Below, in pieces: positions 3,165-22,542 of a stretch of DNA of 64,000 bases. The stretch covers positions 145,419 through 209,418 of the forward strand of contig CAYSSR010000002.1 of NCBI GenBank assembly GCA_964433755.1, written 5' to 3'. Both the position numbers and the translations under genes were made by a program. The notes under the pieces are model-generated. The model was given only the letters and a program-made list of their open reading frames with translations, had not been told where the DNA came from and did not search any database. Numbering within the stretch: position 1 is the first letter of the stretch; each line of letters begins with the position of its first letter. The DNA is from an uncultured Anaerolineales bacterium. GTDB lineage: Bacteria; Chloroflexota; Anaerolineae; UBA7937; B3-Chlor.

Positions 3165-4997
3165 ATGGGCCCTGGTAGAGCAGAGATGGTTGCCGAAGCC
3201 CCTTCGCCCGCCCAAACTGACACTCAGCCCGAGGAGAACCTCGGTCCGCTGTTGTCCCTGGCGCAGGTCAGTGCGACGCTTCTCTCCGAGGTCGAAATCG
3301 AGCGTCTCTACGAACTCATCCTCGAGGTCGTACAGCGTGAGACGGGTGCGGGCATGGTGTCCCTGATGCTACTCGACGAGGGCACGCAGGAGTTGTGCGT
3401 CGAGGCCGCCCTCGGTCTGCCCGCTGCGCTGGTCGGGGCCGCCAGAGTGAAGGTTGGAGAGAGGATTGCCGGCTGGGTGTTGGAGCACGAAGAGCCCCTG
3501 CTGCTCACGGATCGGAGTCCCGTCGACCAGGCGATACGCGAAGCGATGCACAGAGACGAGCTGACGTCTGCCCTCTGCGTGCCCCTCAAGATCAAGGGAC
3601 GGCTGATCGGCGTGCTCAACGCCAGCAAGACGACCACAGAGTCTCCGTTCGACCACCACGATCTCGAACTGCTCTCCATCCTGGCCAGCCAGGTAGCCAT
3701 CGCCATCGAGAACTCACGCGTCCACGAGGCAACCAGACAGAGAACCAGCCAACTAGATGCTCTGAATGAGTTGGGCCGCGTTGTGACCTCCACTCTGGAC
3801 CTCGACGAAGTGCTCCGACTGGCGATGCAGGGCATCAACCAGATCATCGAGGCCGAAGCTGGCTCCCTACTGCTCCTCGACGAGACCACCAGCCAGCTCG
3901 TCTTCCAGGTGAGTCTCCACGGAGACGCACAGCAATCCGCGCCGTTCGCGCTCCAGATCGGGCAGGGGATCGCCGGATGGGTGGTCAAAGAGGGAGAACC
4001 TCTCCTGGTTAGCGATGTGGACGAGGACCCCAGATACTACAAGGAGGCCAGCGAGGGGTTCGGCCTGCAGTGTCACTCCATTCTGTGCGTACCTCTGATC
4101 ATCAGAGAGCACGTGATCGGAGCCATAGAGCTCATCAACAAGCTAGGCGGGCAATTCACAGCCGAGGACCTCGAACTGTTGAACTCCATGGCTTCCACGA
4201 TCGCCATCGCCGTTGAGAATGCACGCCTGTACACCGAACTGGCCGAGTTCGCCCGTGAGTTGGAGAGATCCCAAGCCCAACTGGTCAAGGCAGAGAAGCT
4301 TGCGGCCACAGGGAAACTGGCGGCGTCACTGGCCCACGAGATCAACAATCCGCTACAGGCGATCCAGAACTGCCTCCACCTCGTCACCAGGAACCGTCCT
4401 CTGAGCGAGGCCAAACGACAGACGTACCTGTCCATGGCTCAGGAAGAGGTGCAGCGACTGATAGATCTCGTGCAACGGATGCTCGATTTCTACCGCCCCT
4501 CCAAGGAGAACGTAGAACCTGTGGAGGTCTCGGACGTCCTGGACGACGTGCTCTCTCTCGTTGGCAAGAGACTACAACACGGGGGTATCACCGTACACCG
4601 GACGGAGAGGTCGCCATCGCCTCCTGTAGACGGAGTGAGCAACCTGCTGAAGCAGGTCTTCCTGAACATCATCATCAACGCACTCGAGGCGATGACCGAG
4701 GGGGGTGATCTGTACATCGATACCTCCTGGGACGAGCAGCGAGAGGAAGTGGCTGTGAGTTTCACCGACACCGGACACGGCATTCCCGCTTCCGAACTCG
4801 CAAGCATCTTCGATCCCTTCTTCACATCTAAACCCAAGGGCACAGGCCTTGGACTATCCATAAGCCACGGGATCATCGAGAGACACGGCGGAAGAATAGA
4901 GGTCAAGAGCGAGGTGGGAAAGGGCTCTGCCTTCTCCGTGCATCTTCCCTGCCGACCTCTCGGCCCGCAACAAGCGGAACCACCACAGGCCTCATGA
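3165..4997 (+). CDS. Cytoplasmic GAF-GAF sensor histidine kinase (HisKA + HATPase_c)
   Basis: Two GAF-like blocks are present (..GERIAGWVLEHEEPLLLTD and ..GQGIAGWVVKEGEPLLVSDV). The H-box is KLAASLAHEINNPLQAI. The ATPase N/G boxes are NIIINALEAM, DTGHGIP and GTGLGLSISHGIIERHGG. No TM segments seen. Confidence 0.9.
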   Translation: MGPGRAEMVAEAPSPAQTDTQPEENLGPLLSLAQVSATLLSEVEIERLYELILEVVQRETGAGMVSLMLLDEGTQELCVEAALGLPAALVGAARVKVGERIAGWVLEHEEPLLLTDRSPVDQAIREAMHRDELTSALCVPLKIKGRLIGVLNASKTTTESPFDHHDLELLSILASQVAIAIENSRVHEATRQRTSQLDALNELGRVVTSTLDLDEVLRLAMQGINQIIEAEAGSLLLLDETTSQLVFQVSLHGDAQQSAPFALQIGQGIAGWVVKEGEPLLVSDVDEDPRYYKEASEGFGLQCHSILCVPLIIREHVIGAIELINKLGGQFTAEDLELLNSMASTIAIAVENARLYTELAEFARELERSQAQLVKAEKLAATGKLAASLAHEINNPLQAIQNCLHLVTRNRPLSEAKRQTYLSMAQEEVQRLIDLVQRMLDFYRPSKENVEPVEVSDVLDDVLSLVGKRLQHGGITVHRTERSPSPPVDGVSNLLKQVFLNIIINALEAMTEGGDLYIDTSWDEQREEVAVSFTDTGHGIPASELASIFDPFFTSKPKGTGLGLSISHGIIERHGGRIEVKSEVGKGSAFSVHLPCRPLGPQQAEPPQAS

Positions 4998-5038
4998 ACA
5001 CATGCGCCATAGCCGTTGCAGCAGGGGCGCCCAGTCCA

Positions 5039-5067
5039 TTGACAGATGCTAGGAAATGTGATATACT
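5039..5067 (+). promoter_or_regulatory. Near-consensus sigma-70 type promoter inside the operon-like array
   Basis: TTGACA (5039-5044), a 17-nt spacer ending TGTGA, then TATACT (5062-5067). It lies about 130 nt upstream of the ATG at 5201. Confidence 0.45.
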
Positions 5068-5200: not shown

Positions 5201-5812
5201 ATGCGCATGAAGCGAAAGGTCGTCTCGTCCTTGTCGGGAGAGTACCTCGAGGCCATCGGCAGAAGGCTGCGTGAGCTTCTGGTCGATGCCGATGCCGTTG
5301 CCGTGGTCATGGTCGACACCATGGGCCAGATCATCGCCCAGGCCGGGAATGCGGGTGACATGGACATCACCACGCTGGTTTCCCTTCTGGCGGCCAGTTT
5401 CGCGACCACCTCTGAGATGTCGCGCCAGCTACGGGAGAGCCGCAGGACGTTCAACCTCACCTTTCACGAAGGTGAGAGATACGACATCTATGCCTCCAAC
5501 ATCGCGAGAGGGCTCTTCCTCGTTCTCGTCTTCGACCGGGAGACCTACGCTCCGAAGATAGGAATGGTCTGGCTGTACATCAAGAGGAGTATCCAGGACT
5601 TGCTGCGCATAGCGGCCCAGACCGAAGTCGCCAAGCCCAGAGAAGCCCTGTCCTCCGATTTCGCGCAGTCTCTTAGCGATGAACTCGACAACCTCTTTTC
5701 TGAGAGGATGCCGTCGCCGCCGGCCGACAGCCGTTGGGACGAGGCGCGCATGCAGGAACTAATTCGCTGGAGACGCAGGGACCAACAAGCGCCGGAAGAA
5801 AGGAAACCGTAG
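5201..5812 (+). CDS. Long Roadblock/LC7 (MglB-like) protein
   Basis: Paralogous to the ORFs at 7712, 10446 and 13799 (LRELLVDADAVAVVMVDTMGQIIAQAGN..FHEGERYDIYASNI..LFLVLVFD). Its stop TAG directly abuts the next ATG at 5813. The start could be 5207. Confidence 0.75.
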   Translation: MRMKRKVVSSLSGEYLEAIGRRLRELLVDADAVAVVMVDTMGQIIAQAGNAGDMDITTLVSLLAASFATTSEMSRQLRESRRTFNLTFHEGERYDIYASNIARGLFLVLVFDRETYAPKIGMVWLYIKRSIQDLLRIAAQTEVAKPREALSSDFAQSLSDELDNLFSERMPSPPADSRWDEARMQELIRWRRRDQQAPEERKP

Positions 5813-6502
5813 ATGCCGCTGGAGGGGAGTCTCAAGGAACTGAGCCTGACGAACATCATACAGGTGAACTGCAACGAGATGAATACGGCGACGGTGCGCC
5901 TCGCGTACGAGGGCAAGAACGGCGTCATCTGCTTCGCTGAAGGGGGCATCGTGCACGCTGCGGCTGGGGACCTGGTGGGCGAGGAAGCCGTCTATGAGTT
6001 GCTCAGTTGGCCGGATGGTACTTTCGTCGTGGAGCAGGGCGAGGTGATTCCGCAGAGAACCATCGACAGCAGTTGGAATAGCCTCCTGCTGGAAGGCATA
6101 CGCCGAGTGGACGAGGGCGAAGTGCCGCCAGCGGAGTCACTCAACGTGGAGCCGATCGATCTTCCAGCACCAGACGAAGACGACATGAGCCGACTGGCTC
6201 GCGAGTTGAGGACGCTTGACGGCGTTGAAGGCTCAGTGATTATCTCACACGATGGCGTCGTCTTCGCCAGCAATCTCGAGGGCAATCCCGAGAAAGAAGG
6301 CGCGGTGGCAGTCTTCGTCGGTAACGCTGCCAAAGAGGTCGGACGGGCCATGGACCTCTCCCCTTTCGATTGGGGACTGGTTACCATGGGCAACGATAGA
6401 ATGCTCGTCCTCGAGCAGCCAACGTACTTTGTGGGGCTGCTCTTGGGTGAGAAAGCATCTCCAGCTTTGGTGAGCGCAGAGGTGGCCAAGGTCGTTAGAT
6501 AG
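5813..6502 (+). CDS. PATAN (DUF4388) domain fused to a Roadblock/LC7 domain
   Basis: N-terminus GSLKELSLTNIIQVNCNEMNTATVRL..GVICFAEGGIVHAAAGDLVGEEAVYELLSWPDGTFVVEQG matches the DUF4388 pattern. C-terminus LDGVEGSVIISHDGVVFASNLEG..MLVLEQ is Roadblock-like. Confidence 0.75.
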   Translation: MPLEGSLKELSLTNIIQVNCNEMNTATVRLAYEGKNGVICFAEGGIVHAAAGDLVGEEAVYELLSWPDGTFVVEQGEVIPQRTIDSSWNSLLLEGIRRVDEGEVPPAESLNVEPIDLPAPDEDDMSRLARELRTLDGVEGSVIISHDGVVFASNLEGNPEKEGAVAVFVGNAAKEVGRAMDLSPFDWGLVTMGNDRMLVLEQPTYFVGLLLGEKASPALVSAEVAKVVR

Positions 6503-6522: not shown

Positions 6523-7686
6523 GTGCAACAGCTACTAAACGACATCAATGCCGTTGCCGGCGTGACGGGATCGTTCGTCTGTGATTCTGCGGGCGCGATT
6601 GTGGCGGAGGTATTGCCGCCGTCCTTCGAGGGGCCAACCGTCCAGTTGGCAGCCCGAACGCTGCTCCAGACCGTGGATGGACTCGAGACCACCAGGCGTC
6701 GCAGAGTGCACCAGCTCGACATAGTGTTCCGCGAGTCGAGGATCGTGGTCAAGAACCTGCGTGTCGGCTGTCTCTACGTGGTCTGCGCCCGTAACATCAA
6801 TGTACCTCTTCTGGACCTGACCGCCAACCTGGCAGCCAGGAAGCTGACTCAGGCGCTCAAGGAGACGCAGCAGAAGGCGGAGCCCGCTACCACCGTTGCC
6901 CCTGTGGCGAAGCCGGTGGTTGAGGCACCAGAGGAGGAGCTGCCAAGCGATCGTTCCGCACTGCTCTTGGCTCGGGCTCACGAGGTGATTGGAGCAGCAG
7001 TGAAGCGAGCGATCCTTCTGCGCCTCTTGGGCGGCACGGCCGTGAAGGCGACTTGTCCAAGTGCTGCCAGCATCACCTTGCCGGCCGAGGATCTTGACCT
7101 CGATCTAGCGGTCTACGGTAAACAGCGGGAGCATCTGGACGAGGCCATGGAGGGCTTGGGCTACGAGCCTCACCAGCGCTTCAACGCCCTTCACGGTCAC
7201 AGACGCCTCAAATACACGCATCCTGAGCAAGGCATTGCTCTCGACGTGTTTGTAGACACCTTCCACATGTGCCACAGACTTCCCTTCGCCAACCGACTAG
7301 AGTTGGCCGACCTGTGCATTCCGTCCGCCGACCTGCTCCTGTCCAAGCTTCAGATAGTGCGAATGGGAGAAAAGGACCTGAGAGACATCTATGCCATTCT
7401 GTGTGACCACGAGCTTGGGTCCGCTGGCGCGGTGGACGAGGTTGATACAGACTACATGGTCTCGGTATGTAGCGACGACTGGGGCTGGTACAAGACAGTC
7501 ACCATGAACCTGGAGAAGAGCATGGAATTGGCGGGTGAGTTCCTCGCCGACCAACAGCAAGAGATCTTCGGAGCCCGTGCCCGGAAACTGAGAGAAGCAA
7601 TCGAGGCGGCTCCCAAGTCCTTGCGCTGGCAGGCGAGAGCCGCAATCGGGGAAGCAAGGCGTTGGTACGACCTGCCCGAGGAGTAG
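6523..7686 (+). CDS. Roadblock/LC7 domain fused to a C-terminal nucleotidyltransferase-like domain (tentative)
   Basis: GTG start after GGAGGG. The N-terminus LLNDINAVAGVTGSFVCDSAGAIVAEVLP is paralogous to the ORF at 16182. The C-terminal half has LLGGTAV..(19 aa)..DLDLDLAV..IALDVFVD, which resembles a pol-beta-fold NTase acidic triad. That assignment is inference. Confidence 0.65.
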   Translation: MQQLLNDINAVAGVTGSFVCDSAGAIVAEVLPPSFEGPTVQLAARTLLQTVDGLETTRRRRVHQLDIVFRESRIVVKNLRVGCLYVVCARNINVPLLDLTANLAARKLTQALKETQQKAEPATTVAPVAKPVVEAPEEELPSDRSALLLARAHEVIGAAVKRAILLRLLGGTAVKATCPSAASITLPAEDLDLDLAVYGKQREHLDEAMEGLGYEPHQRFNALHGHRRLKYTHPEQGIALDVFVDTFHMCHRLPFANRLELADLCIPSADLLLSKLQIVRMGEKDLRDIYAILCDHELGSAGAVDEVDTDYMVSVCSDDWGWYKTVTMNLEKSMELAGEFLADQQQEIFGARARKLREAIEAAPKSLRWQARAAIGEARRWYDLPEE

Positions 7687-7711: not shown

Positions 7712-8194
7712 ATGGAATCCCTGAACCCCCCGACGGAGTTGTTCATCCGCATTGAGGACTGCCTCGAACGCTTGCTCGACAGGAGTCGCGCGATCTGCGT
7801 CTTCCTGGCCGATATCAGCGGACAACTAATCAGTGAGAGAGGGAATGACGAGGGGCTGGATATCGCTGCTCTGGCGGCCGTGACGGCAAGCAACATGGCC
7901 GCGACTGGTGAGATGGCCAGGCAACTGGGCGAACCAGTGCCCTTTTCCTACCTTTTTCACGAGGGACGGAGACGCAATATCTACATCTCCGCAGTCGGCG
8001 AAAGCTTTCTGCTGGTGATCGTATTCGACGACATGACGCAGATAGGGTTGGTGCGCATCTTTGCCAGACTCGCGGTCAACGAACTGATCAAGGTCGCCGA
8101 GGAGATGGAGCCCTGGCTGGAGAGAGCAAGTTCGGTGGTGGATCGCGAGTTCGGCGGCGCGTTGGCCGAGGGACTGGATGAGGCCTTCATCTAG
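7712..8194 (+). CDS. mglB: MglB-like Roadblock/LC7 protein (putative MglA GAP)
   Basis: 160 aa, immediately upstream of an mglA gene as in mglBA operons. The Roadblock pattern is LERLLDRSRAICVFLADISGQLISERGN..LFHEGRRRNIYISAV..FLLVIVFD. Confidence 0.75.
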   Translation: MESLNPPTELFIRIEDCLERLLDRSRAICVFLADISGQLISERGNDEGLDIAALAAVTASNMAATGEMARQLGEPVPFSYLFHEGRRRNIYISAVGESFLLVIVFDDMTQIGLVRIFARLAVNELIKVAEEMEPWLERASSVVDREFGGALAEGLDEAFI

Positions 8195-8230: not shown

Positions 8231-8803
8231 ATGTTCATCAATTGGAAGATGCGCGAGATCAACCTCAAGATCGTGTACTACGGGCCAGCCCTCAGCGGCA
8301 AGACCACAAACCTCGAGTACGTGCACTCCAGGACGCACCCGAACCTGCGGGGAGAGCTCATCTCCCTAAAGACCAGAGGAGACCGTACTCTCTACTTCGA
8401 TTTCATGCAGCTGGAGCTGGGACAGATCAAGGGGCTCAAACCCAAGTTCAATCTGTATACCGTGCCCGGCCAACCGTGCTACATTGCCAGTCGAAGGCTC
8501 GTGCTGCAAGGGGCAGACGGCGTGGTGTACGTGGCTGACTCGCAACTCAGCAGGCTCAAAGCGAACATAGAGACTATGCACAGCCTCGAGGAGAACCTGC
8601 GGGAGCTTGGCACGAACCCACTGGACTTTCCAGTGGTACTCCAGTACAACAAGAGGGACCTACCCAGCATAGCCCCTGTGGCACTGCTGCGGATGCAATT
8701 GGCGAGGGACGGTGTACCTCAGTATCAATCGGTAGCCACCGAGGGCGTGGGAGTGCTGGAAACGCTCAAGGCAGCCATCAACCTAGTCGTGTCAAGGATA
8801 TGA
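8231..8803 (+). CDS. mglA: MglA-family Ras-like small GTPase (copy 1)
   Basis: MFINWKMREINLKIVYYGPALSGKTTNL (P-loop), DRTLYFDF (switch I with the MglA Arg/Thr), YTVPGQ (switch II), YNKRDL (G4). Collinear with Myxococcus MglA along its length as I recall that sequence. Confidence 0.9.
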   Translation: MFINWKMREINLKIVYYGPALSGKTTNLEYVHSRTHPNLRGELISLKTRGDRTLYFDFMQLELGQIKGLKPKFNLYTVPGQPCYIASRRLVLQGADGVVYVADSQLSRLKANIETMHSLEENLRELGTNPLDFPVVLQYNKRDLPSIAPVALLRMQLARDGVPQYQSVATEGVGVLETLKAAINLVVSRI

Positions 8804-8807: not shown

Positions 8808-9188
8808 ATGTCAAAGGTATCTTTCGAACAAGCCTTGGAGAGGATCAACCGCGACGGCAGTTTTGAGGCCTCAGTGCTCGCCAGCAGCGATGGTTTGCCC
8901 ATCGCCACGGTGCCCTCGGGGTATGATACAGATGTGACCGCTGCCATGGTCGCTCTCCTCCGAAGTGTTGCTCAGCAGACTCAGGACCACGTGGGCATGG
9001 CCCCACTGGACGAGGTCACGGTCAGGTCCAGCGATCATATACGACTGGTCTGTCGCTGCTTCCAGCTAGACGGCGAGGAGTTCGTCTTGGCCGTGGTCAT
9101 ACCCCGCAAGCAGCGCTACTACAGACAACTGACCAACCGGGCCATCCGCGAGCTCAGACTTGCGTGGCACGCCATGGTGGAGGACTAG
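8808..9188 (+). CDS. Short Roadblock/LC7 protein
   Basis: 126 aa: SFEASVLASSDGLPIATV..IRLVCRCFQLDGEEFVLAVVIP..YYRQLTNRAIRELRLAW. Paralogue of the convergent ORF at 9622-10020. Confidence 0.75.
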   Translation: MSKVSFEQALERINRDGSFEASVLASSDGLPIATVPSGYDTDVTAAMVALLRSVAQQTQDHVGMAPLDEVTVRSSDHIRLVCRCFQLDGEEFVLAVVIPRKQRYYRQLTNRAIRELRLAWHAMVED

Positions 9189-9621
9189 CCAGGTCGCCAC
9201 TCGCTGGCGGCCCGCACGGGACCGCGGAGTAGGCGCCAACTGACCACATCACCCCCGACCTAGGAGCCATCGAGAAATGCTACACCCTCCCCTGCCAGGA
9301 CGGGTAGTCCCTGTAGCAGCAAACCCGAAGGCTCCTCTCAAAAACCGTCCAGGACCGGAGCCCCCACCTCTGAGCCCGACGCTGCAGCAAAGGCATCCAG
9401 TTCGCGGGACTCTCACTCTCTCATGAGCATTTCGTCGTGGACCCGGAGTTGCTCCAATCGCGGTCCCCGAAGGCCCAACAGGCCAGCCAGCCTCTGAAGA
9501 AGAGAATCCAGGTCTTCTTTAGACCTGGACGCTGAGGCCACGCTCAACGGAACCCATCCTACGGCTCGCCACTTCCTCTCGACAGCCTCGACTACCACCG
9601 ATTCGATGGCGACGGCACTCT

Positions 9622-10020
9622 CTATGCCCGCCAAGCCCGTCTGATCCTGTTGATGGCGCGGTTGGTCAGTCGCCTGTAGGTCTGGTAGGGCGGGGCCACC
9701 ACCGCGAGCACGAGCTCTTCCTCCTCAACTCGGAAGCACCGACAGATGAAACGCATCCTGTCCGCTTGGACCACCGAGACCTCGTCGATCTCATCCAGCC
9801 CAATACTCTGCCGCGCACGCTCGATGGTGCTCCTGACCAGGCTAACCATCGCAGCCATCGTCTCCGCATCGAAGGGCGAAGAAACCGATGAAAGAGGAAG
9901 CCCCTCAGCACTGACCAGAACAGAGGCCTTGAAGTGGCCCTCTTCGTTCATCAGCCGCAGAATCCTCTCCAATCTGACCTCGAGATCCATGCCAGCCTGC
10001 CCGGCTCCCCGTTCCCCCAT
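9622..10020 (-). CDS. Short Roadblock/LC7 protein
   Basis: HFKASVLVSAEGLPLSSV..MRFICRCFRVEEEELVLAVVAP..TYRRLTNRAINRIRRAW. The ATG at 10020 follows GAAGGTGGGG, 13 nt after the upstream stop. Confidence 0.75.
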   Translation of the reverse strand: MGERGAGQAGMDLEVRLERILRLMNEEGHFKASVLVSAEGLPLSSVSSPFDAETMAAMVSLVRSTIERARQSIGLDEIDEVSVVQADRMRFICRCFRVEEEELVLAVVAPPYQTYRRLTNRAINRIRRAWRA

Positions 10021-10033: not shown

Positions 10034-10408
10034 TCAGTAGAGAAGACCGCGCATCTCCGCTGCGGTCTCCTTCATGGCCACAAGGAGCAAGCCCAGGACC
10101 ATCTCTCTGCCGGCCACTGCGGCCAGCACCGCACTGGGACCGGCGTTGACCATCACGATGTAGCTATCACGACTCTCCACGAGGACTCGCTCTACATCAC
10201 TCGAACCGAGCTCATCCGTCGCCTCCTGCCCCATCGTAAGCATGGCCATAGCCATGATGGTCACCTTCTTCTCGTAAGTCTCGTCGGGCAGGTCCGCAGC
10301 CACCACGAAACCATCTCCCGTCACCACGGCTGTCCCCACGACGTGCGGCGAAGCCCGCCTCAGGCCGCGCAGCGCCTCAGTGAGTTGAAGATCGATATCA
10401 TCGACCAT
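10034..10408 (-). CDS. Roadblock/LC7 protein
   Basis: I moved the start to the ATG at 10408, preceded by GGGAGGAG. The longer ORF-track start would overlap the upstream gene. Roadblock pattern: VVGTAVVTGDGFVVAADL..SYIVMVNAG..AVLAAVA. Confidence 0.7.
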   Translation of the reverse strand: MVDDIDLQLTEALRGLRRASPHVVGTAVVTGDGFVVAADLPDETYEKKVTIMAMAMLTMGQEATDELGSSDVERVLVESRDSYIVMVNAGPSAVLAAVAGREMVLGLLLVAMKETAAEMRGLLY

Positions 10409-10445
10409 CGGTACTCCTCCCAACATGGCACCCAGTGGTGACCTC

Positions 10446-13783: not shown

Positions 13784-13798
13784 GCCTCGTCCCCTTGA

Positions 13799-14290: not shown

Positions 14291-14527
14291 CTCACAAGCC
14301 TCCTGATCCCGCCGTAGGCTGCGTTGCCCACTGCGGGGATGATCCACCTAACCCCACAAACGCACTCCGGCGACCCGCGATCACCGAGTGAAGTATCCGG
14401 GCACTGGTCTTCTGGTGCAGTCGTTTCCTCGGCGATCCCTCGTCTGGACCGAACTCCCTACACTCCGGAAATCTAGGATACAGAACAACTCCGCAGGAAG
14501 AATCATCTCGCGCCCAATTCTCGGCGC

Positions 14528-15391: not shown

Positions 15392-16189
15392 CTACATTTG
15401 GAAGCTTCTCAACAACCCCAAGATAGCCTGCTGGAAAAGCGCCCGCTTGCCCTCATCCTCGATGTCAGCACTGATACGCTCCACCAACTCTGCCGCTCTG
15501 GCCCGAGGGAAGTGCTCTCTTGTCTCCCCCATCGTGGCGATCTCATCGTCTATGATCACAGGGCCAAGCGGCCCCACTGCCTCCACGAACTGCTCGTCCA
15601 ATAGCCCGAAGAACCCTCCGTCCACGGCCGGCGTCGGGCCGGCCTGACGGCCGGTCGTCAATTCCAGAAGGCCATTCGTCACAAGTCTGACAAGCAGCTT
15701 GGAGACCAGGAGTTCATCCCAAGTCAACGCTTCGGCAATCTCCGAGACATCCCTCTCACCATCCACTTTGGCCAGGACCCGCCACTCCTCCGGCTCGAGA
15801 CTGACTGCACCATTGGCACCTGACGCAGAAAGCTGGAAGACCGCATCCGCGCTGGGGATCACACTCTTGATCGCCCTCCACTCCCTCGCATGCTTGCTTC
15901 CCTCATCAAGCAGCCGCTCCGTGGGCATGGTGATCGAACTCTCAGACGCCAGCACTTGCGGCGCGAAGTCGAAACTCCCTCTTTGCCAGGCCATCAAGGC
16001 GTAGACAGCGCTTTCCCCCATCTGCCCCTCAGTCACGGCGTGGATCAGATTCCCCTCTTTGACGAAGATCTCTCCCGTCCTGGCACCGTCGGCCACACGC
16101 AGAAGGCCCGTTTGCCGGCCGGAGGCCAGTAGCCTCAGAACGTCGACCAGTGACACCTGGGCAAGGTTGCCAACGAGCATCTCAGGCAT
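15392..16189 (-). CDS. PATAN (DUF4388) domain protein with an uncharacterised C-terminal domain
   Basis: GNLAQVSLVDVLRLLASGRQTGLLRV..GEIFVKEGNLIHAVTEGQMGESAVYALMAWQRGSFDF. It overlaps the upstream gene by 8 nt. Confidence 0.7.
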   Translation of the reverse strand: MPEMLVGNLAQVSLVDVLRLLASGRQTGLLRVADGARTGEIFVKEGNLIHAVTEGQMGESAVYALMAWQRGSFDFAPQVLASESSITMPTERLLDEGSKHAREWRAIKSVIPSADAVFQLSASGANGAVSLEPEEWRVLAKVDGERDVSEIAEALTWDELLVSKLLVRLVTNGLLELTTGRQAGPTPAVDGGFFGLLDEQFVEAVGPLGPVIIDDEIATMGETREHFPRARAAELVERISADIEDEGKRALFQQAILGLLRSFQM

Positions 16190-16637
16190 CGTTCGACTCC
16201 TTTCTCTCCAGGGCCTTCAGTAATTCCCAGGAGAGTTCATCGAGCTCACTCTCCAACACTTGCTTGACTTTGAGGCTGTCCCGCAAGCGGTCGCCCAGCT
16301 CCGGGTCGTCTCTCAACTGCGTTGCTGCAACGTTCAGTGTCATCCTGAGCATGGGAGTGTCTGCCTGATGGCCACACACCACTACGAGCAGACTGGCGCC
16401 CAGGTCCCGCACCACCAGTCGAATGCGCGCGGTCTGCAAGTCCAACTCCTCCCCAGACTCCCGCGTCGCGCTCAGGACCGCCACGGTTTGTGCTGCCTCA
16501 CGAGCGACGTCACGGATCCAGGTCATGTCGACGTCATCAGTGAGGGAACTGGCGATCACCCGCCCGCTGTTGTCGCAGACGAAAGAGCCAGTGACACCAG
16601 CTACCGCATTGATCTCGGCCAGTCTCTCGTCGATCAC
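16182..16637 (-). CDS. Roadblock/LC7 protein
   Basis: LAEINAVAGVTGSFVCDNSGRVIASSL..IRLVVRDLGASLLVVVC. Paralogue of the N-terminus of the ORF at 6523. Confidence 0.7.
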   Translation of the reverse strand: MIDERLAEINAVAGVTGSFVCDNSGRVIASSLTDDVDMTWIRDVAREAAQTVAVLSATRESGEELDLQTARIRLVVRDLGASLLVVVCGHQADTPMLRMTLNVAATQLRDDPELGDRLRDSLKVKQVLESELDELSWELLKALERKESNDA

Positions 16638-16640: not shown

Positions 16641-17657
16641 TCACTCCGCCACGAACAGCTCCGGCATGACGTCCATCAGCCCGTACCTCTGGACGGCGTC
16701 GGCACGTTCCTCCACCACCAGAGCCAGTCCCTGCCTCACCTCGGCCACCAAGTCGACTCCGGGCAGGCCGTCCACCATCCTGCTCACGGTCGCACTCAGC
16801 GTCCGACCCAGTGCCCGGCTTAACCTTTCTGAGGCCGGTCCGGAATAGGTGATCAGTCCGTCCCTGTAGTCGAACTCGCCGGCAAATGGATCAAGAAAGG
16901 GATACTCCTCTGCACTCTCGATCAACGAGTCTCTCAAGGCATCAAGGAAGCTTCCCTTCCCAGCGTGGCCGTCGGCGATGCGCTCGACCGTGGCCACCAC
17001 GTTCTGCCATAGGATCAGGAGTTGAGGTAGTTCCAGCGCGACCAGGATCTCCTCCGTGTTCTCGAAAGCCTCCTCAAGCGCGGTTCGGTACACGTTGAAG
17101 ACCGCACCCACTGAGGAAGCGGCCTCCATGATATGCGGCAAAGCTTGGGTTCCAGAGAGCACCTCGCTGCCCGATGAGAGCATGCTTTCCACTACTTCTC
17201 CAGACCGAAACAGGATCATCGCGCTGCCCTTGCCGCCCTTCAAGGCTGCCTCCACGTAGCCTGTATGTCCGTCGCTCTGAAGCTTCGCCACGAGTTGTGC
17301 GAGGTCACTGAAGTCCGTATTCAGGTCCTTGTGTACTACTTCGCTCTTCAGCACGCTAGCCAGCATGGTCACCATGTCCGCCGCGAGCGAATAGACACTC
17401 ACGCTGCCGTTCTTCTCTTCCGCCTGGCGCATGATGCCGCTGACTGCTTCCTGGCCAGTGCTTCGCGCGTGTGTGGTCTCCTCGACACCATTGACGATGG
17501 TGCCGTTGTCGACGAACAGGACACCCTCGTACTCCCAGAAACTGACCTCGACGTATCCGGTGAAACCATTGGCCTTCAGGTCTTGTACCAGTCCGTCAAA
17601 GTCCACGAAGGAGGTGTTCAAGTTTGCATACTCCGCACGCCCCTTGGGTAGGATCAT
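16641..17657 (-). CDS. Protein with two tandem divergent PATAN-like repeats plus a helical C-terminal domain
   Basis: Internal repeat: NLNTSFVDFDGLVQDLKANGFTGYVEV..GVLFVDNGTIVNG..TGQEAVSGIM versus DLNTDFSDLAQLVAKLQSDGHTGYVEA..AMILFRSGEVVESM..SGTQALPHIM. The domain name is inference. Confidence 0.55.
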   Translation of the reverse strand: MILPKGRAEYANLNTSFVDFDGLVQDLKANGFTGYVEVSFWEYEGVLFVDNGTIVNGVEETTHARSTGQEAVSGIMRQAEEKNGSVSVYSLAADMVTMLASVLKSEVVHKDLNTDFSDLAQLVAKLQSDGHTGYVEAALKGGKGSAMILFRSGEVVESMLSSGSEVLSGTQALPHIMEAASSVGAVFNVYRTALEEAFENTEEILVALELPQLLILWQNVVATVERIADGHAGKGSFLDALRDSLIESAEEYPFLDPFAGEFDYRDGLITYSGPASERLSRALGRTLSATVSRMVDGLPGVDLVAEVRQGLALVVEERADAVQRYGLMDVMPELFVAE

Positions 17658-18733
17658 TGGCTCCCGCCTTTCACCTGAGGGTACCTTCGCAGCACATTCC
17701 TGACCTCAGTCGCGATGGATTCGGGCGAGGATCTCAGAGAGATCCACACGCCGACATAGTCTTCCCCGTAGGGAACAACGAGGACCCGCCCCCTTGCGCC
17801 GGTAAGGCAAACCGATCTGGGACGGCCTGCGTTGAGCACGAAAGCAAGGCTGCGGGACCTCTGCCCCAACAGCGCGGTCACAGCAGCTTTCCGCGTGGGT
17901 TCAGAGCACAGCGCCTCACTCAATAGGCCACCTCCCCGAGCGCACACGACTACGCTTTCTACACCCTCGACTGCCTTTAGAGCAGTCGCCATTCTCTGCA
18001 CACTGGGTTCTTCGGCAGCCGCGTCATACTCATCCTCCGGCTCCCACTCCTCCACGGCGTCGTCGATGCGACGCATCCCTTCCAGCAAGAGACCCGTCCA
18101 TCCCACTGCAACCGTTCGCTTGGGGGGCGGTACGCCTTGTTTGAGAGAGAAGCTGCCATCCTCCCAGGACAGCAGTTCATAGATCACCTGCTCGCCTTCC
18201 TCATCATCCAGGCTAGCGTGGACTATCCCGCCACTCTCGAAGTAGATTATCCCCACACGACCCTGGCGATGGATCACCAACTCAGCCTGGTTGTGCTCGC
18301 TACAGTTGACCGAAATGATGCTCGTGAGGGACAGATCCCGCAGACTCCCGTGGACTGCCTTCTCACCACGTTGTGCCACAACCTGGAGCACTCTTGCCGG
18401 CAGTTCCCCAGCAGCTAGGGGGCCCTCAATGAACTCCGCTGCCCCGGCTTTCAGAGCCTCGACCGCCAGGTCCACCGTGGCATGCGTGGACAGGACCACT
18501 GCGAGCGCCTCTGGGTCGTAGCTCATCAGGTCCGCGAGCACCTTGATCCCCTCCGCCCCGTGCGCCGGTACGTGGACGAGCACCAATTCGAAGGTCTCAG
18601 CTTGATAGGGTCCGAGCACCCCCGCGTCGTAGGTGACTCCTCGCGCCATCAATCCGCCCCGCTCCAACTCCTGTACCAGAGCGTGGACAGTCCCGATGTC
18701 GCCCCCAACGACAAGAACTCGCGTGTCCGCCAT
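17654..18733 (-). CDS. Degenerate receiver domain + PATAN (DUF4388) + Roadblock/LC7 three-domain protein
   Basis: Start set at ATG 18733. The receiver-like N-terminus (TRVLVVGGD..FELVLVHVPAHG..VVLST..FIEGP) has His where the phospho-Asp is expected and Gly at the conserved Lys position. The middle is GSLRDLSLTSIISVNCSEHNQAELVI..GIIYFESGGIVHASL..GEQVIYELLSWEDGSFSL. The C-terminus is LKAVEGVESVVVCARGGGLLSEAL. Confidence 0.7.
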   Translation of the reverse strand: MADTRVLVVGGDIGTVHALVQELERGGLMARGVTYDAGVLGPYQAETFELVLVHVPAHGAEGIKVLADLMSYDPEALAVVLSTHATVDLAVEALKAGAAEFIEGPLAAGELPARVLQVVAQRGEKAVHGSLRDLSLTSIISVNCSEHNQAELVIHRQGRVGIIYFESGGIVHASLDDEEGEQVIYELLSWEDGSFSLKQGVPPPKRTVAVGWTGLLLEGMRRIDDAVEEWEPEDEYDAAAEEPSVQRMATALKAVEGVESVVVCARGGGLLSEALCSEPTRKAAVTALLGQRSRSLAFVLNAGRPRSVCLTGARGRVLVVPYGEDYVGVWISLRSSPESIATEVRNVLRRYPQVKGGSQ

Positions 18734-18829
18734 TGATGCCTTTGCCCCGAGGTCGGGCCGCACGGCCTGTGTGACTGACAAGCACTACATCTGCCCTGCA
18801 GACAGTCCTGAGTCCTGCCTGGAACGTGA

Positions 18830-19534
18830 TCAGATACCCCGGGCGTTCCGCAGAGGTAGGGTCAGAGTCACGGCCGTCCCTCGTCCGGGTGTCGATTCAA
18901 CGACCAGTTGGCCGCCGAGGCCTTGAGATCTTTCCCACATGCCCGCCAACCCCAACCCCAGACGCGGATAGCCAGAGATCACACTAGTCGGATCGAAGCC
19001 AATGCCATCGTCCTCGATAGACATTTGAAGAGAGCCTACTCCGTTGACCGCTCGGACCACGACGCGCGAGGCGCCAGCATGGTGACAGGTGTTCCGCAGC
19101 GCCTCTTGGACGATGTAGAAGAGAGCCGTGCTCTGCTCACCATTCAACACGTGCTCGGGAAGATCGCCGAGATCGAGACTCACCTCGATCTGGAACTGTC
19201 TCTCGCATTCGAGGGCAAGGCAGCGTATTCCCTCGCGAAGGCTGGCGTGTTCCCCTGAACCCGGACCGACTTGCACCATCAGTTCCTTCACGGTGCTGAG
19301 GCTCTTTTCCCAGCAGCCTCTAAGCCGAGCTAGTTCGTCTTCCAGCGCGGTGGAGTCTCCATTGGAGGACAGTCGCCCGCATACGTCGATACTCAGCCGT
19401 AGAGCGGTGAGGGTTTGCAGGAGGTCGTCATGGAGTTCGCGAGCCAGACGATGTCGCTCCGCCTCCATGAGCATGATACGTCGGTTGGGCGTTTCCGCGG
19501 GAACGAGGTCGAAGTAGTCTCCTTGCATGGGCAC
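18830..19534 (-). CDS. Soluble HisKA_3-type histidine kinase without a sensor domain
   Basis: H-box ERHRLARELHDDLLQTL. HATPase boxes EALRNTCHH, DDGIGF and GLGLAGMWERS. Paralogue of the ORF at 12296-12982. Confidence 0.85.
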   Translation of the reverse strand: MPMQGDYFDLVPAETPNRRIMLMEAERHRLARELHDDLLQTLTALRLSIDVCGRLSSNGDSTALEDELARLRGCWEKSLSTVKELMVQVGPGSGEHASLREGIRCLALECERQFQIEVSLDLGDLPEHVLNGEQSTALFYIVQEALRNTCHHAGASRVVVRAVNGVGSLQMSIEDDGIGFDPTSVISGYPRLGLGLAGMWERSQGLGGQLVVESTPGRGTAVTLTLPLRNARGI

Positions 19535-19720: not shown

Positions 19721-20530
19721 TCACTCCGACTGGGACTCCAGCAATACGTAGCCCTCACCGCGGACATTCGCGATCTGGACTGGGCCTCGGCCCATGGAGT
19801 CAAGCTTGCGCCTGAGCCTCCATAGATGGGTACTGATGGCCTTCTTTGCTGTCGTGGCCTCACAGGAGACACCGTGGACCGCCTCTGCCAGCGCACCGAA
19901 GCTCACAGTGTTGCCGGCGTTCTCCATCAAACAGAGCAAAAGCTTGTACTCGCTGGACGTCAGAGCAACAGACTCACCGGCGGAGACGACGTTCAGCTTC
20001 GCTCGGTCCACCAAGAGATCGCCAACACGCAGATACCGAGTCCGTTCGTCACCACGGGGCTCAGTCTCTGTTGTTGTGACCTCTCCCTCCGCGAGTTCGC
20101 GTGCCAGGTTCCCCATCTGCCGTAGCAGATCCTCCTGCCGCCGAGATTGCTGGCGTTTGGCCAAGCCCTTCTCCACACTGGCCAGGATCTCATTCGGGGA
20201 AGATGGCTTCAGGAGATAGTCGTGTCCTCCGTGGCGCAGAGCTTCCACTGCCGAATCCAGGGTTGCGTAGGCAGTCAGCATGACCACGACCGTTCGGGGA
20301 GCCAGGTCGCGGGCAACTCGCATAACCTCGATGCCATCCATCCCCGGCATCTTCAGATCCAGCAGCATGAGATCGAAGGTGGCCTCCTCCAACATCGCCA
20401 GTGCCTCTTCGCCGCTAGCTGCCGTGGACACTTCATACCCTTGTTGGGTCAGTTCCTCAGACAGAAGGAAACGAACTGACGATTCATCGTCAACGACAAG
20501 TATCCTGGCTTCGTCAGTCAACAGGTTCAC
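19721..20530 (-). CDS. OmpR-family response regulator (receiver + winged-helix)
   Basis: RILVVDDE..DLMLLDLKMPGMDG..VMLTA..DYLLKP is an intact receiver. The C-terminus LTSSEYKLLLCLMEN..HLWRLRRKLD..VRGEGYVL is Trans_reg_C. A 4-nt overlap links it to the upstream kinase gene. Confidence 0.9.
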   Translation of the reverse strand: MNLLTDEARILVVDDESSVRFLLSEELTQQGYEVSTAASGEEALAMLEEATFDLMLLDLKMPGMDGIEVMRVARDLAPRTVVVMLTAYATLDSAVEALRHGGHDYLLKPSSPNEILASVEKGLAKRQQSRRQEDLLRQMGNLARELAEGEVTTTETEPRGDERTRYLRVGDLLVDRAKLNVVSAGESVALTSSEYKLLLCLMENAGNTVSFGALAEAVHGVSCEATTAKKAISTHLWRLRRKLDSMGRGPVQIANVRGEGYVLLESQSE

Positions 20531-22542
20531 CCCCCAACCGGCAACCTCACGCAGAAGCGAGTGCCTGCTCCCTCCTCGCTACCCACCTCCAGGGACCCTC
20601 CGTGCCTCTCCACGATGCTGTGGCTCACAGCCAGGCCCAGTCCGGCTGATCCCTCCCTCGACCAATAGAAAGGCTCGAAGACGTAGGGCAACTCCTCTGG
20701 CGGTATGCCTTCTCCAGTGTCGCTGAAGATGATTACCACCTGACCGTTGGCTCGATCCACATCAGTGCCCACCGTCAATTGCCCACCACCAGCCATTGCT
20801 TCCACATGGTGCAGGACGAGGTTGATGAAGACTTGCCTCAAATAGCTTACCTGCACAGCAACCAAGGGCAACGCTTCTGCGAACTCTCTCACAACCGAGA
20901 TCCCGCTATGCTCGATCTGCTTGCTGGCCAGAGCAAGCGTGTCCTCCAGCAAGTCGTTGACGTCGACCAGATCGCGCTCTTCACCGGCAGGTCTGTAGAA
21001 ATCCAACATGCGTCGCACGAGCTGGATGAGACGCTGCACCTCTCGGTCCGCGATGCTCACGTACCGCATGGTCTTCTCATCAGCATGGACATCGTTGGCG
21101 AGGAGGCTGATGCTGCTACGAAGAGCTTGCAGGGGGTTGTTGATCTCGTGAGCTAATGAGGCAGTGAGACGCCCTAGCGCGGCCAACTTCTCCGTGTGGA
21201 TGAGTCTTTGTTCCATCTCCCTCGTGGCACTCACGTCACGAATAACCACCTGAGCGAGGGCCACGTCTCCACGCGTCAGGCGATTGACGCGTACGCACAC
21301 GGGCACCGACCGGCCGTCTCTCCTCTCCAAGCTCAGATGATCAAAGCCACTCTCGCCAGTTGTCAGTACATCCCTCAGCGTAACCCTTACTGGGTGGTCT
21401 CCCTGCACGCAGTAGATGCGATCGGCGGTCTCGCTGAGCAGCCCTTCCAGGCCACAACCGGTCAACTCCCCCGCTTGGTCATTGGCCTCCACCACCCGCC
21501 AGTCTTCCAGGTCCACCACGCAGACTGCATCGCTCACGGTCTCCACCAACAGCCTGTATTCATGTTGGGCTGTCTCGAGCTCGCGGCGCAGATCGACGTT
21601 CTGGAGAGCCGCGGCAGTCTGACGGGCCAGAATCGTTAGCACCTCCTGGTGTGTCTCGTCAAAGGAATCAGCCCGTGCGCTCCCTAGACTCAGACCGCCA
21701 ACCGTCTTCCCTCGTATGACCAGAGGCGCGGTCACAGAGGATCTGAGATCTGGACTCATCTCGGGGCAGCAAGTATCCTCGCTGATCTGCCACTTAGAGG
21801 AGTTGAGTGGAGGAGACGAAGGAGTGTCCTTCTGTTGAGGCTGGCCCCGCCTAGCCGGGGACCCTGAGCTCGCGTCGGCCGGGTCTCTGACGAGCAGCCA
21901 CCCCTTCTCCGGGTCCATGACCTGGGCGATAGCCACGTCCACGTTTGGGATGGCATTGGTGGCGGCCTCTAGCGCAGACCTCAGAACCTCCTCAGCCCCA
22001 CCTGCTCTGCCGGCCGCTTCAGCCAAGGCATCCAGTGTGGTGAGTTCCCTCTCTCTGCTGCGAATCTCATCCCGAAGCCGGACCTGCTCCAATCTCGGGC
22101 TTTGCATGTCCAGCAGGCCAGCCAAGCTCTGGGGAAGAGAATCCAGGTCTTCTCCAGACCCGAAGAAGCAAACCACGGTGTTCCCCATCCCAGCCGCGTG
22201 ATGTCCCTGCTCGCCGTATGCCCCGGCCAATACCACGATGGGGATTCCACAACCTGTTGTCGCGATCCGACGGAGAAGACTCAGGTCATCGGGCCCCGGG
22301 GGATCAAGATCGAGGATGACTGCGTCATACGTCTGGCCGTCAAGCTGCCGGATCGCCTCCGACGGCTCTGCCACGACCACGACCTGCCAGGTTGGGCAGT
22401 TCCGAGCGAATGCCCCCCTCACATCCGCGGCACGATGGTGGCTTGCCTCCAACAGCAAGACACTGCGGCCGTGAAAACCACGAAGTTGGGTCGGCGCCAC
22501 GCCACTCCCTCCGAGCGGAAGGAAAATGCATCGACAGCCCAA
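20527..22542 (-). CDS. Hybrid sensor kinase: receiver-like + GAF + PAS + HisKA + HATPase_c
   Basis: Receiver-like N-terminus (VLLLEAS..YDAVILDLDPPG). GAF/PAS-like middle section. The H-box RLTASLAHEINNPLQAL is almost identical to that of the kinase at 3165. HATPase boxes DTGEGIP and GLGLAVSHSIVERHGG. Confidence 0.85.
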   Translation of the reverse strand: MGCRCIFLPLGGSGVAPTQLRGFHGRSVLLLEASHHRAADVRGAFARNCPTWQVVVVAEPSEAIRQLDGQTYDAVILDLDPPGPDDLSLLRRIATTGCGIPIVVLAGAYGEQGHHAAGMGNTVVCFFGSGEDLDSLPQSLAGLLDMQSPRLEQVRLRDEIRSRERELTTLDALAEAAGRAGGAEEVLRSALEAATNAIPNVDVAIAQVMDPEKGWLLVRDPADASSGSPARRGQPQQKDTPSSPPLNSSKWQISEDTCCPEMSPDLRSSVTAPLVIRGKTVGGLSLGSARADSFDETHQEVLTILARQTAAALQNVDLRRELETAQHEYRLLVETVSDAVCVVDLEDWRVVEANDQAGELTGCGLEGLLSETADRIYCVQGDHPVRVTLRDVLTTGESGFDHLSLERRDGRSVPVCVRVNRLTRGDVALAQVVIRDVSATREMEQRLIHTEKLAALGRLTASLAHEINNPLQALRSSISLLANDVHADEKTMRYVSIADREVQRLIQLVRRMLDFYRPAGEERDLVDVNDLLEDTLALASKQIEHSGISVVREFAEALPLVAVQVSYLRQVFINLVLHHVEAMAGGGQLTVGTDVDRANGQVVIIFSDTGEGIPPEELPYVFEPFYWSREGSAGLGLAVSHSIVERHGGSLEVGSEEGAGTRFCVRLPVGG

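Follow-up and report, generated by a model that had tools for sequence, protein, structure and literature searches.

Three MglA–MglB modules joined with PATAN–Roadblock and Roadblock–nucleotidyltransferase-like fusion proteins in one Chloroflexota locus

MglA and MglB form the best-studied polarity switch built on a bacterial small GTPase, yet little is known of what regulates it outside Myxococcus. Within the MglA family, group 1 is marked by an arginine finger, TVPGQ and NKxD, whereas group 2, the conservon group, has GTPGQ and NxFD and no arginine (PMC4316618). Neighbourhoods in which MglA and MglB stand beside a PATAN domain were listed for Chloroflexi in 2014 and never characterised (PMC4316618, text and Table S2); examples are '<PATAN>MglA<MglB-MglB' in Chloroflexus and Herpetosiphon and 'MglB>MglA>PATAN>' in Roseiflexus (PMC4316618, Table S2). 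The MglA–MglB–PATAN neighbourhood in Chloroflexi is also noted in the work that describes PATAN as an output domain binding the pilus motor proteins PilB1/PilC in Synechocystis (bioRxiv 10.1101/2021.06.11.447907). PATAN domains are widespread, and pilus-motor binding in this one cyanobacterium is their sole tested role. An MglB–PATAN context had reportedly been noted by Makarova et al. as early as 2006. Here, we describe a locus at positions 3165–22542 of a 64,000-nucleotide stretch of DNA (hereafter the window) from an uncultured Anaerolineales bacterium of the phylum Chloroflexota (contig CAYSSR010000002.1, positions 145,419–209,418). The locus is an elaboration of the tabulated group-1 MglA–MglB–PATAN neighbourhoods; what is new is the composite, its fusion proteins and a partner that joins a Roadblock domain to a nucleotidyltransferase (NTase)-like domain.

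The region was covered by a map of open reading frames (ORFs), their translations and three Pfam scans, which reproduced the inventory of an original prediction made from the letters of the DNA, with every gene at its coordinates. The locus encodes three group-1 MglA proteins, four MglB-like Roadblock proteins and seven further Roadblock domains, together with PATAN domains, four histidine kinases, an OmpR-type regulator, a PilZ protein and a HAMP-only membrane sensor in which Pfam finds no output domain (Table 1). The genes form two arms. The plus arm runs from a GAF-GAF kinase through RoblL1, a PATAN–Roadblock fusion, the Roadblock–NTase protein (387 aa) and MglB1 to MglA1 and RoblS1. The minus arm, read 5' to 3', begins with HK_GAF2, the OmpR regulator, HK3b, a pseudo-receiver–PATAN–Roadblock protein, a tandem DUF2226 protein, Robl151, PATAN with a winged helix-turn-helix (wHTH), and a four-helix-bundle (4HB)-HAMP protein, and continues with MglB3, MglA3, HK3a, MglA2, PilZ, MglB2, RoblM and RoblS2. 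The original prediction had overlooked four features: the NTase-fold domain at the C-terminus of the Roadblock–NTase protein, the receiver (with its degeneracy) of the pseudo-receiver–PATAN–Roadblock protein, the wHTH of the PATAN–wHTH protein, and a kinase pseudogene fragment at 9362–9634. For comparison, every ORF in 64 fetched relative loci (labelled L001, L003, L008 and so on) was annotated using phmmer and domain-level window queries and cross-checked against precomputed Pfam calls.

Judged by their sequences, the three GTPases are genuine group-1 MglA proteins. The published criteria for this group are a length below 240 aa, an arginine finger beside the G2 threonine, TVPGQ, and MglB within four genes (PMC4316618). 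In a sequence search of the PDB, the E-value of MglA1 was 7.6e-65 against M. xanthus MglA and 6.5e-62 against T. thermophilus MglA, and the three proteins share 51–55% identity with M. xanthus MglA and 54–67% with one another; Pfam and NCBIfam returned weak Arf/small-GTP similarity only. All three are single-domain proteins, of 190, 190 and 200 aa. Their alignment confirmed the signature motifs that had been read from each of the three ORFs, namely GxxxxGKTT, the DRT arginine, YTVPGQ and NKxD in the form NK(R/Q)D, and the DRT arginine aligns with Arg53 of M. xanthus MglA. MglB1 and MglB3 lie 36 and 15 nt upstream of their own MglA genes, and MglB2 lies two genes downstream of MglA2.

Four long Roadblock proteins (RoblL1, MglB1, MglB2 and MglB3) had been called MglB-like, and this holds. 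They matched NF052242, the Thermus-type MglB family, at 55–71 bits over nearly the full model; all pass the Pfam Robl_LC7 gathering score, are 31–46% identical to each other and end in a common acidic motif, (D/E)Fxx(S/A)Lx(D/E)xLD. MglB1 matched M. xanthus MglB at E=1.1e-23. The scores stay below the 200-bit equivalog cutoff, so that these proteins are MglB homologues and, by the curated NF052242 threshold, not equivalogs.

Of the 11 Roadblock domains originally counted, 7 exceed the Pfam gathering score (those of RoblL1, MglB1, RoblS1, RoblS2, RoblM, MglB2 and MglB3). The other four are sub-threshold: Robl151 at 21.3 bits, the C-termini of the PATAN–Roadblock protein (16.6–18 bits) and of the pseudo-receiver–PATAN–Roadblock protein (14 bits), and the N-terminus of the Roadblock–NTase protein (13.5 bits). 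These are backed by further evidence. An AF2 model of the Roadblock–NTase protein matched solved Roadblock structures in Foldseek with target TM-scores up to ~0.84; the two PATAN–Roadblock proteins are 35% identical over 229 aa, which is the whole PATAN–Roadblock length; hhalign against a short-Roadblock profile gave P values of 2e-6 to 1.8e-4; and some homologues of the weak Roadblock proteins carry precomputed PF03259 matches.

Three proteins exceed the gathering cutoff of PF14332 (DUF4388), which is 25 bits: PATAN–Roadblock, PATAN–wHTH and pseudo-receiver–PATAN–Roadblock. The tandem protein stays below it at 21–23 bits and matches DUF2226 in two stretches, in agreement with the earlier description of three clear PATAN domains and a degenerate tandem pair. 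The PATAN–Roadblock fusion belongs to a family of at least 318 members, nearly all of them from metagenome bins of Anaerolineae/Chloroflexota and some with both PF03259 and PF14332 precomputed. In the larger fusion the receiver (REC) is degenerate: the acidic DD pair has become GG, the acceptor aspartate is a histidine and the conserved lysine a glycine. Orthologous fusions from other loci have canonical receivers.

Scanning species-representative genomes yielded 56 loci, every one from Chloroflexota (Anaerolineae/-ales, Thermoflexus, Ca. Aquidulcis and metagenome-assembled genomes (MAGs) of Chloroflexia). The closest relatives, 88–92% identical, come from an Anaerolineae bin and from metagenome contigs of the JGI. 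Three module types recur. Type A has the order (GAF kinase), MglB-like, PATAN–Roadblock, Roadblock–NTase, MglB, MglA and short Roadblock, and the same order is found in more than 15 Chloroflexota genomes (MAGs). Type B comprises (REC-)MglB-like, (REC-)PATAN–Roadblock, Roadblock, Roadblock/PATAN–DUF8082, HAMP-only, MglB, MglA and short Roadblock (for example L047, L052, L054, L058 and L006). Type C consists of PilZ, MglB and two Roadblock genes (L001, L003, L008), preceded in the window by a HisKA_3 kinase and MglA. The full composite with three MglA genes was found only in the closest relatives, in L008 and, for the most part, L001. PATAN–Roadblock lies within 2.6 kb upstream of Roadblock–NTase in all 34 loci that have upstream sequence, and MglA lies within 5 kb in 19 of the 28 loci having both flanks. 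A triad of MglB, MglA and short Roadblock surrounds 26 of the 35 MglA genes surveyed, and a short Roadblock gene directly follows MglA in 28 of the 35. As had been predicted, the MglA/MglB modules are genuine, and PATAN proteins and kinases are embedded in them.

The three MglA proteins and, in parallel, the MglB-like proteins fall into separate clades that track module type in neighbour-joining trees, which carry no support values and are indicative only. MglA2 forms a separate clade with its L001 and L008 orthologues, and MglA3 groups with MglA proteins of HAMP/DUF8082-type modules. RoblL1 has its own clade, in which relatives carry a fused canonical REC, and MglB2 belongs to the PilZ-associated MglB clade. 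Because the two trees split in parallel by module type, they indicate that the three MglA proteins are old paralogues and that three modules were joined in the lineage of the window. The earlier description of the locus as triplicated is therefore misleading, since the clades are tied to different modules and point to assembly rather than to recent triplication.

With some reserve, we consider it probable that the locus encodes three MglB-gated MglA switches seated on multi-Roadblock/PATAN platforms that integrate kinase, cyclic di-GMP (c-di-GMP) and membrane signals. MglB dimers would act as GTPase-activating proteins (GAPs) by positioning the arginine and glutamine of MglA itself, as in Thermus and Myxococcus. 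The additional Roadblock proteins would use their Roadblock domains to pair, most clearly in the case of the PATAN–Roadblock and Roadblock–NTase proteins, which are always linked, and the resulting platform may recruit or tune MglA/MglB and present PATAN as an adaptor or output domain along with the NTase-like domain. Input would come from the GAF/PAS kinases, in relatives by way of receivers fused to MglB-like or PATAN–Roadblock proteins, receivers that have been lost or have degenerated in the window; c-di-GMP, through PilZ, and the membrane HAMP sensor may provide further inputs. By analogy, the output could be spatial control of an envelope machine, for example type IV pili or gliding, because PATAN binds PilB1/PilC, PATAN proteins are among the SgmX/MglA-proximal candidates in M. 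xanthus, and MglA has its known roles in Myxococcus and Thermus. Fusions support this arrangement: PATAN–Roadblock, REC–PATAN–Roadblock, REC–MglB-like, Roadblock–NTase and Roadblock–wHTH proteins tie the domains into one network. Such 'Rosetta-stone' proteins, Roadblock–V4R among them, argue for a physical action of PATAN, receivers and the NTase-fold domain on complexes of Roadblock proteins and MglA.

Several observations weigh against this reading. Neither the window nor the annotated flanks of L001–L008 contain genes for type IV pili, gliding or known effectors (SgmX, RomR/RomX, AglZ). In about one third of loci the PATAN–Roadblock/Roadblock–NTase pair has no MglA nearby, so the pair may have an MglA-independent role. 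The sole canonical receiver in the locus is that of the OmpR regulator, whose translation is coupled to that of HK_GAF2, and this leaves HK_GAF1, HK3a and HK3b with no evident route into the modules. The trees, as said, are indicative.

The two arms start with paralogous GAF kinases, as originally proposed: their H-boxes read LAASLAHEINNPLQA and LTASLAHEINNPLQA, and the kinase cores are 48% identical. The arms also converge on paralogous short Roadblock proteins, RoblS1 and RoblS2 (47% identity), and the two sensor-less kinases HK3a and HK3b are 43% identical. Orthologues of HK_GAF1 precede module A in L001, L003, L008–L013, L015, L016, L018 and L019. All kinases of the locus are either cytoplasmic GAF/PAS enzymes or sensor-less HisKA_3 enzymes, and no kinase domain is present in the HAMP protein, whose gene recurs in type-B modules next to MglB (L006, L008, L047, L052, L054 and L058). 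The PilZ protein combines its PF07238 match with both motifs of c-di-GMP receptors, and binding of c-di-GMP is predicted on this basis.

The relatives indicate how kinases may reach the modules. Canonical N-terminal receivers, with the DD pair, aspartate, threonine and lysine in place, are fused to MglB-like and/or PATAN–Roadblock proteins in L007, L023, L051–L054, L058, L060 and L063, and REC-GAF kinases are encoded alongside in several loci with such receiver-fused proteins. The window's MglB-like protein lacks a receiver altogether, and that of the pseudo-receiver–PATAN–Roadblock protein is degenerate. Because relatives fuse canonical receivers to these proteins, the evidence points to two-component phosphorylation acting on the Roadblock/PATAN proteins in relatives, with ordinary His-Asp phosphotransfer, and not a conservon-like scheme lacking a regulator, as the predicted input. 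The kinases, above all the sensor-less HisKA_3 enzymes beside MglA2 and within module B, and the HAMP membrane protein could instead bind the Roadblock proteins and MglA directly, with the GTPase, in place of a response regulator, as the output of the kinase, as proposed for the conservons CvnA-D of Streptomyces. Kinases are indeed embedded in all three modules, the adjacency of HK3a and MglA2 is conserved in L001 and L008, module A is preceded by a GAF kinase in at least 12 loci, the HisKA_3 kinases have no NarL-type partner in the locus, and the receivers of the window's module proteins are lost or degenerate. However, the GTPases belong to group 1 and not group 2, Pfam found no DUF742/CvnC in any ORF of the locus (E≤0.01), relatives carry canonical REC fusions, and most module copies elsewhere lack HisKA_3 kinases. 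An LPxR-like C-terminus in HK_GAF1 and HK3b was considered as a conservon link and rejected, as it is not kept in orthologues. We regard conservon-like complexes as unlikely, and the earlier label 'conservon-style' is dropped on the same grounds, the kinases also being of the wrong type.

Descriptions of cultured Anaerolineae generally call them non-motile, and this counts towards a further alternative: the modules may mainly control transcription or development, not polarity or motility, with the state of MglA read by PATAN–wHTH, Roadblock–wHTH (DUF8082) and OmpR proteins. The PATAN–wHTH protein of the window has wHTH matches to a Csa3/CasR-like profile (23.7 bits, PADLOC) and weakly to Rrf2/MarR in Pfam; residues 127–182 are annotated as DUF8082 in an orthologue, and proteins of other loci, type-B modules included, join this region to Roadblock. 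The coupling of HK_GAF2 to the OmpR regulator fits this alternative too, as do group-3 MglA systems, which are predicted to have REC-wHTH partners (PMC4316618). The wHTH similarity is weak, however, at 14–24 bits, module A has no DNA-binding domain, and PATAN has been argued not to bind DNA in cyanobacteria (bioRxiv 10.1101/2021.06.11.447907). A mainly transcriptional role thus appears doubtful to us, and we retain the MglB-gated switch as the preferred interpretation.

The Roadblock–NTase protein has at least 512 homologues, almost all from Anaerolineae/Chloroflexota metagenome bins. Its AF2 model reached a pLDDT of 87 over the full length, and the C-terminal domain (248 residues) a pLDDT of 93 and a pTM of 0.91. 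Among the 50 Foldseek matches listed for the model were Roadblock structures, with query-normalised TM-scores of 0.23–0.28 and target-normalised scores of 0.66–0.84; the N-terminal domain resembled Asgard Roadblock proteins, LAMTOR and MglB, with LAMTOR subunits among the best. The C-terminal domain matched the MenT1 toxin, ANT(2'')-Ia, LnuA and JHP933 (E=4e-5 to 1e-3, TM 0.36–0.55), and NTP_transf_5 matches of 19–20 bits, below the 31.2-bit cutoff, are consistent with the predicted NTase fold. An exhaustive profile-free search for relatives of the product of window positions 6940–7683 (E≤1e-3) retrieved 1861 representatives, most of them stand-alone NTase-fold proteins of ~250 aa. No Pfam model reaches its threshold for this family: seven sampled members scored 17.8–30.2 bits with NTP_transf_5, and three further ones gave no match (cutoff 31.2 bits).

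The window protein retains G170-G171, D192xD194 and D241, as do relatives that share at least 60% identity with it, and the same residues are near-invariant in the stand-alone family (128–129 of 131). The DxD motif is degenerate in most of the more distant Roadblock-fused orthologues (below ~55% identity), while the gene context is unchanged. The idea that DxD is conserved throughout the fused family was accordingly rejected, and is partly revived by the stand-alone family. Because distant orthologues lose the motif yet keep their context, the conserved role of the fusion is probably structural, and catalysis in the lineage of the window is possible on the strength of its intact residues. One could alternatively suppose an active enzyme, placed by its Roadblock domain, that nucleotidylylates MglA, MglB or another partner, or makes or consumes a nucleotide signal; if so, a covalent or metabolic layer would be added to the MglA switch. 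The NTase fold, predicted with high confidence, the intact and near-invariant residues, and the stand-alone NTase genes that adjoin Roadblock genes in L041 and L056 are consistent with this proposal. The degenerate DxD in distant orthologues of the same context implies, on the other hand, that catalysis is not essential to the conserved role, and the Foldseek TM-scores of the domain are only 0.36–0.55. An active enzyme in this sense therefore seems to us improbable. More speculative still is the specific version in which the active protein, docked by its Roadblock domain onto MglA/MglB within a multi-Roadblock, Ragulator-like platform carrying a PATAN adaptor, would nucleotidylylate the GTPase or its GAP. 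If true, such a modification of MglA/MglB would give bacteria an endogenous equivalent of the AMPylation by which pathogens modify the small GTPases of their hosts.

A likeness to MenT/AbiEii-type proteins might also suggest that the cluster, or the NTase gene, is a toxin–antitoxin or anti-phage defence system. The top Foldseek matches of the NTase domain are MenT1 toxin structures, and the window has a defence-like islet outside the locus. Against this, PADLOC returned nothing for the module proteins except a generic wHTH match, the gene order with MglA/MglB is kept across the phylum in a chromosomal context, and there is no antitoxin-like partner. We consider a defence function very improbable and rejected it.

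Table 1. Coordinates of the features of the locus, with the matches that identify them.
Feature	Positions	Strand	Description
HK_GAF1	3165–4997	+	Cytoplasmic GAF-GAF-HisKA-HATPase kinase; GAF_2 152.8, HisKA 46.8, HATPase_c 90.5 bits; no adjacent cognate receiver
Promoter-like site	5039–5067	+	Within the 203-nt gap upstream of module A; TTGACA-17-TATACT plus TG; 11/12 consensus matches; consensus match only
RoblL1	5201–5812	+	Fourth MglB-like Roadblock; acidic C-terminal motif, long basic tail; Pfam Robl_LC7 24.7, NF052242 55.5 bits
PATAN–Roadblock fusion	5813–6502	+	DUF4388 75 bits; C-terminal Robl 16.6–18 bits; hhalign P=1.8e-4
Roadblock–NTase-like fusion	6523–7686	+	387 aa; N-terminal Roadblock, disordered linker, C-terminal pol-beta NTase-fold domain
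MglB1	7712–8194	+	Predicted GAP-type Roadblock partner of MglA1, 36 nt upstream of it; Pfam 32.7, NF052242 68.4 bits
MglA1	8231–8803	+	Group-1 MglA; E=7.6e-65 to MglA structure 6hjh; type-A clade
RoblS1	8808–9188	+	Short Roadblock closing module A; Pfam 36 bits
GAF-PAS kinase pseudogene fragment	9362–9634	-	73-aa ORF; similarity continues beyond in-frame stop
RoblS2	9622–10020	-	Short Roadblock, paralogue of RoblS1 (47% identity); Pfam 27.6 bits
RoblM	10034–10408	-	124-aa Roadblock, refined start; Pfam 45.9 bits; orthologues 124 aa in L001, L003, L008
MglB2	10446–10949	-	MglB-like; Pfam 30, NF052242 57 bits; ATGA overlap with PilZ (gap -4)
PilZ	10946–11305	-	Pfam PilZ (PF07238) 53.2 bits; RKERR (RxxxR) and DLSEGG (DxSxxG) in translation
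MglA2	11632–12204	-	Group-1 paralogue; 61% identity with MglA1; all motifs kept
HK3a	12296–12982	-	Sensor-less HisKA_3 + HATPase kinase, 228 aa; HisKA_3 38.6, HATPase_c 60.4 bits; H, N and G boxes readable
MglA3	13181–13783	-	Group-1 paralogue; identity with MglA1 67.4% (MAFFT), 68.4% (BLASTP)
MglB3	13799–14290	-	MglB partner of MglA3, 15 nt upstream; Pfam 49.7, NF052242 71.2 bits
4HB-HAMP membrane sensor	14528–15325	-	4HB (TarH-like), no output domain; HAMP 52.5, TarH 28.4 bits
PATAN–wHTH	15392–16189	-	DUF4388 82.9 bits; wHTH similarity at residues 127–182; L008 orthologue annotated PatA_N+DUF8082
Robl151	16182–16637	-	Pfam 21.3 bits; 40% identity to N-terminus of Roadblock–NTase protein over 108 aa; hhalign P=7e-5
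Tandem DUF2226/degenerate PATAN-like	16641–17657	-	DUF2226 40 bits in two stretches; DUF4388 21–23 bits; conserved in L008
Pseudo-receiver–PATAN–Roadblock	17654–18781	-	REC 31.7, DUF4388 71.5 bits; degenerate REC
HK3b	18830–19534	-	Sensor-less HisKA_3 kinase; HisKA_3 46, HATPase_c 53.3 bits
OmpR-type regulator	19721–20530	-	Canonical receiver; Response_reg 108, Trans_reg_C 58.8 bits; 4-nt overlap with HK_GAF2
HK_GAF2	20527–22542	-	(REC-like)-GAF-PAS-HisKA-HATPase kinase; paralogue of HK_GAF1

Starts were refined against orthologues before junction lengths were counted; the unrefined spans of three minus-arm ORFs had been 13799–14347 (MglB3), 10446–11045 (MglB2) and 10034–10504 (RoblM). With the refined starts, 10 of the 21 junctions measure 20 nt or less and 14 measure 50 nt or less, while five gaps span 186–326 nt. 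The statement that most genes are linked by overlaps or by gaps under 20 nt was therefore overstated, and because so few junctions are short and five gaps are this wide, the locus probably comprises several transcription units. Promoter- and terminator-like sites showed no enrichment over shuffles in the region. Two candidate terminators, at 9530–9506 and 22164–22142, were rejected as paralogous coding sequence. The only Rfam match was a tRNA at 33418–33501 (-), at a distance from the locus; upstream of PilZ there was no riboswitch match, such as one of the c-di-GMP type. The 326-nt gap between MglA2 and PilZ (11306–11631) is 82–84% identical in DNA to L001 and is probably a conserved regulatory region. 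An 80-aa gene called there in L001 was rejected, since its reading frame is not kept in the window, and the gap was treated as intergenic.

The point at which the arms converge is unstable. The pseudogene fragment found there, from a third GAF-PAS kinase, shares 74% DNA identity over 165 bp with positions 21996–22160 and 64% protein identity with residues 129–164 of HK_GAF2, and L003 has an intact GAF-PAS kinase in its place. In L001, a 92% relative, four tandem V4R genes and an extra Roadblock gene are inserted at the convergence point (11018–14298). The TRAPPC3/Bet3 fold of Rab-GEF complexes in eukaryotes has its prokaryotic relative in V4R. In other Chloroflexota, Roadblock–V4R fusions lie beside stand-alone NTase-like genes (L041, 13026–13859; L056, 9807–10721).

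On one side the locus is flanked by a gene for a secreted VIT+VWA protein (758–3061, -), divergent from the GAF kinase; its best NCBIfam match is a sortase-target family, below cutoff. This gene is kept beside module A down to 65% identity (L001, 1566–3830; L003, 4238–6463; L008, 4232–6457). The other side adjoins a DUF4340 gene and an ATP-binding cassette (ABC) transporter (22804–26717, -), whose best NCBIfam matches are the gliding-associated GldG (83.6 bits), GldF (157.5 bits) and GldA (324 bits). All three scores are below their equivalog cutoffs; the transporter is suggestive only and was not counted as evidence of a gliding link. Further along the window, 30862–32424 (-) encodes a radical SAM/SPASM protein with a PqqD-like N-terminus, resembling maturases of ribosomally synthesised and post-translationally modified peptides, with a methyltransferase and a double thioredoxin protein adjacent. 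Positions 38000–46000 have a G+C content of 0.64–0.65, compared with ~0.60 elsewhere, and encode two paralogous major facilitator superfamily transporters and polysaccharide-synthesis genes. The defence-like islet (45841–56498) holds a 978-aa restriction-modification fusion of the Eco57I/MmeI type, together with a weakly Swt1-like HEPN protein, a PIN_12 and a Schlafen AlbA_2 protein, with unannotated ORFs between them.

Module A is a compact six-gene operon that could be reconstituted in vitro. It makes three questions testable: how PATAN is linked to a GTPase, whether phosphorylation gates an MglB-type GAP, and whether Ragulator-like multi-Roadblock platforms exist in bacteria. All carriers are uncultured, and the basic gene association had already been catalogued.

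How does the locus compare with systems already described? The modules A, B and C recur in Chloroflexota and, in agreement with the original prediction, the literature yielded no characterised equivalent, neither of the Chloroflexota composite nor of the PATAN–Roadblock fusion or the Roadblock–NTase family, although the association of MglA, MglB and PATAN in Chloroflexi is on record (PMC4316618). The conservons CvnA-D likewise place an MglA-family GTPase in an operon with a Roadblock protein and a histidine kinase, and the operon is multiplied within the genome (PMC4316618). They differ in having a group-2 GTPase, CvnC/DUF742 and a membrane-bound HAMP kinase that carries LPxR; the locus has none of these. 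The cyanobacterial PatA-type regulators PixG, PixE and LsiR also combine PATAN with a receiver, and theirs is an output domain that binds PilB1/PilC. PatA-type proteins carry PATAN N-terminal to a phosphorylatable receiver, whereas the order in the locus is REC-PATAN-Roadblock with a degenerate receiver, the partners are a GTPase and Roadblock proteins, and there is no Tax/Pil-Chp operon.

In its use of several Roadblock-fold proteins with a small GTPase, the locus resembles the Ragulator–Rag and TRAPP systems of eukaryotes and Asgard archaea: LAMTOR is among the matches of the Roadblock–NTase N-terminus, V4R (TRAPPC3-like) genes occur in the same locus of the 92% relative, and Roadblock–V4R fusions occur in other Chloroflexota. 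The GTPase is of the MglA and not the Rag/Rab type, and the likeness is one of fold and logic only. With MglA/MglB of M. xanthus and T. thermophilus it shares 51–55% identity to M. xanthus MglA, the arginine finger, TVPGQ and an adjacent MglB homologue. It differs in its host, a filamentous-lineage Chloroflexota, in its three MglA paralogues with up to five Roadblock proteins per MglA, and in adding PATAN–Roadblock and Roadblock–NTase proteins, with no RomR/RomX, Frz or effector genes nearby. The extra Roadblock proteins and the PilZ protein recall MglC and PlpA. Closest of all in domain families and phylum are the Chloroflexi neighbourhoods catalogued in 2014. Those consist of three or four genes and came without analysis, whereas a module of the locus has six or seven genes, with PATAN fused to Roadblock and a Roadblock–NTase gene; kinases are embedded, three module types are joined, and relatives add REC fusions.

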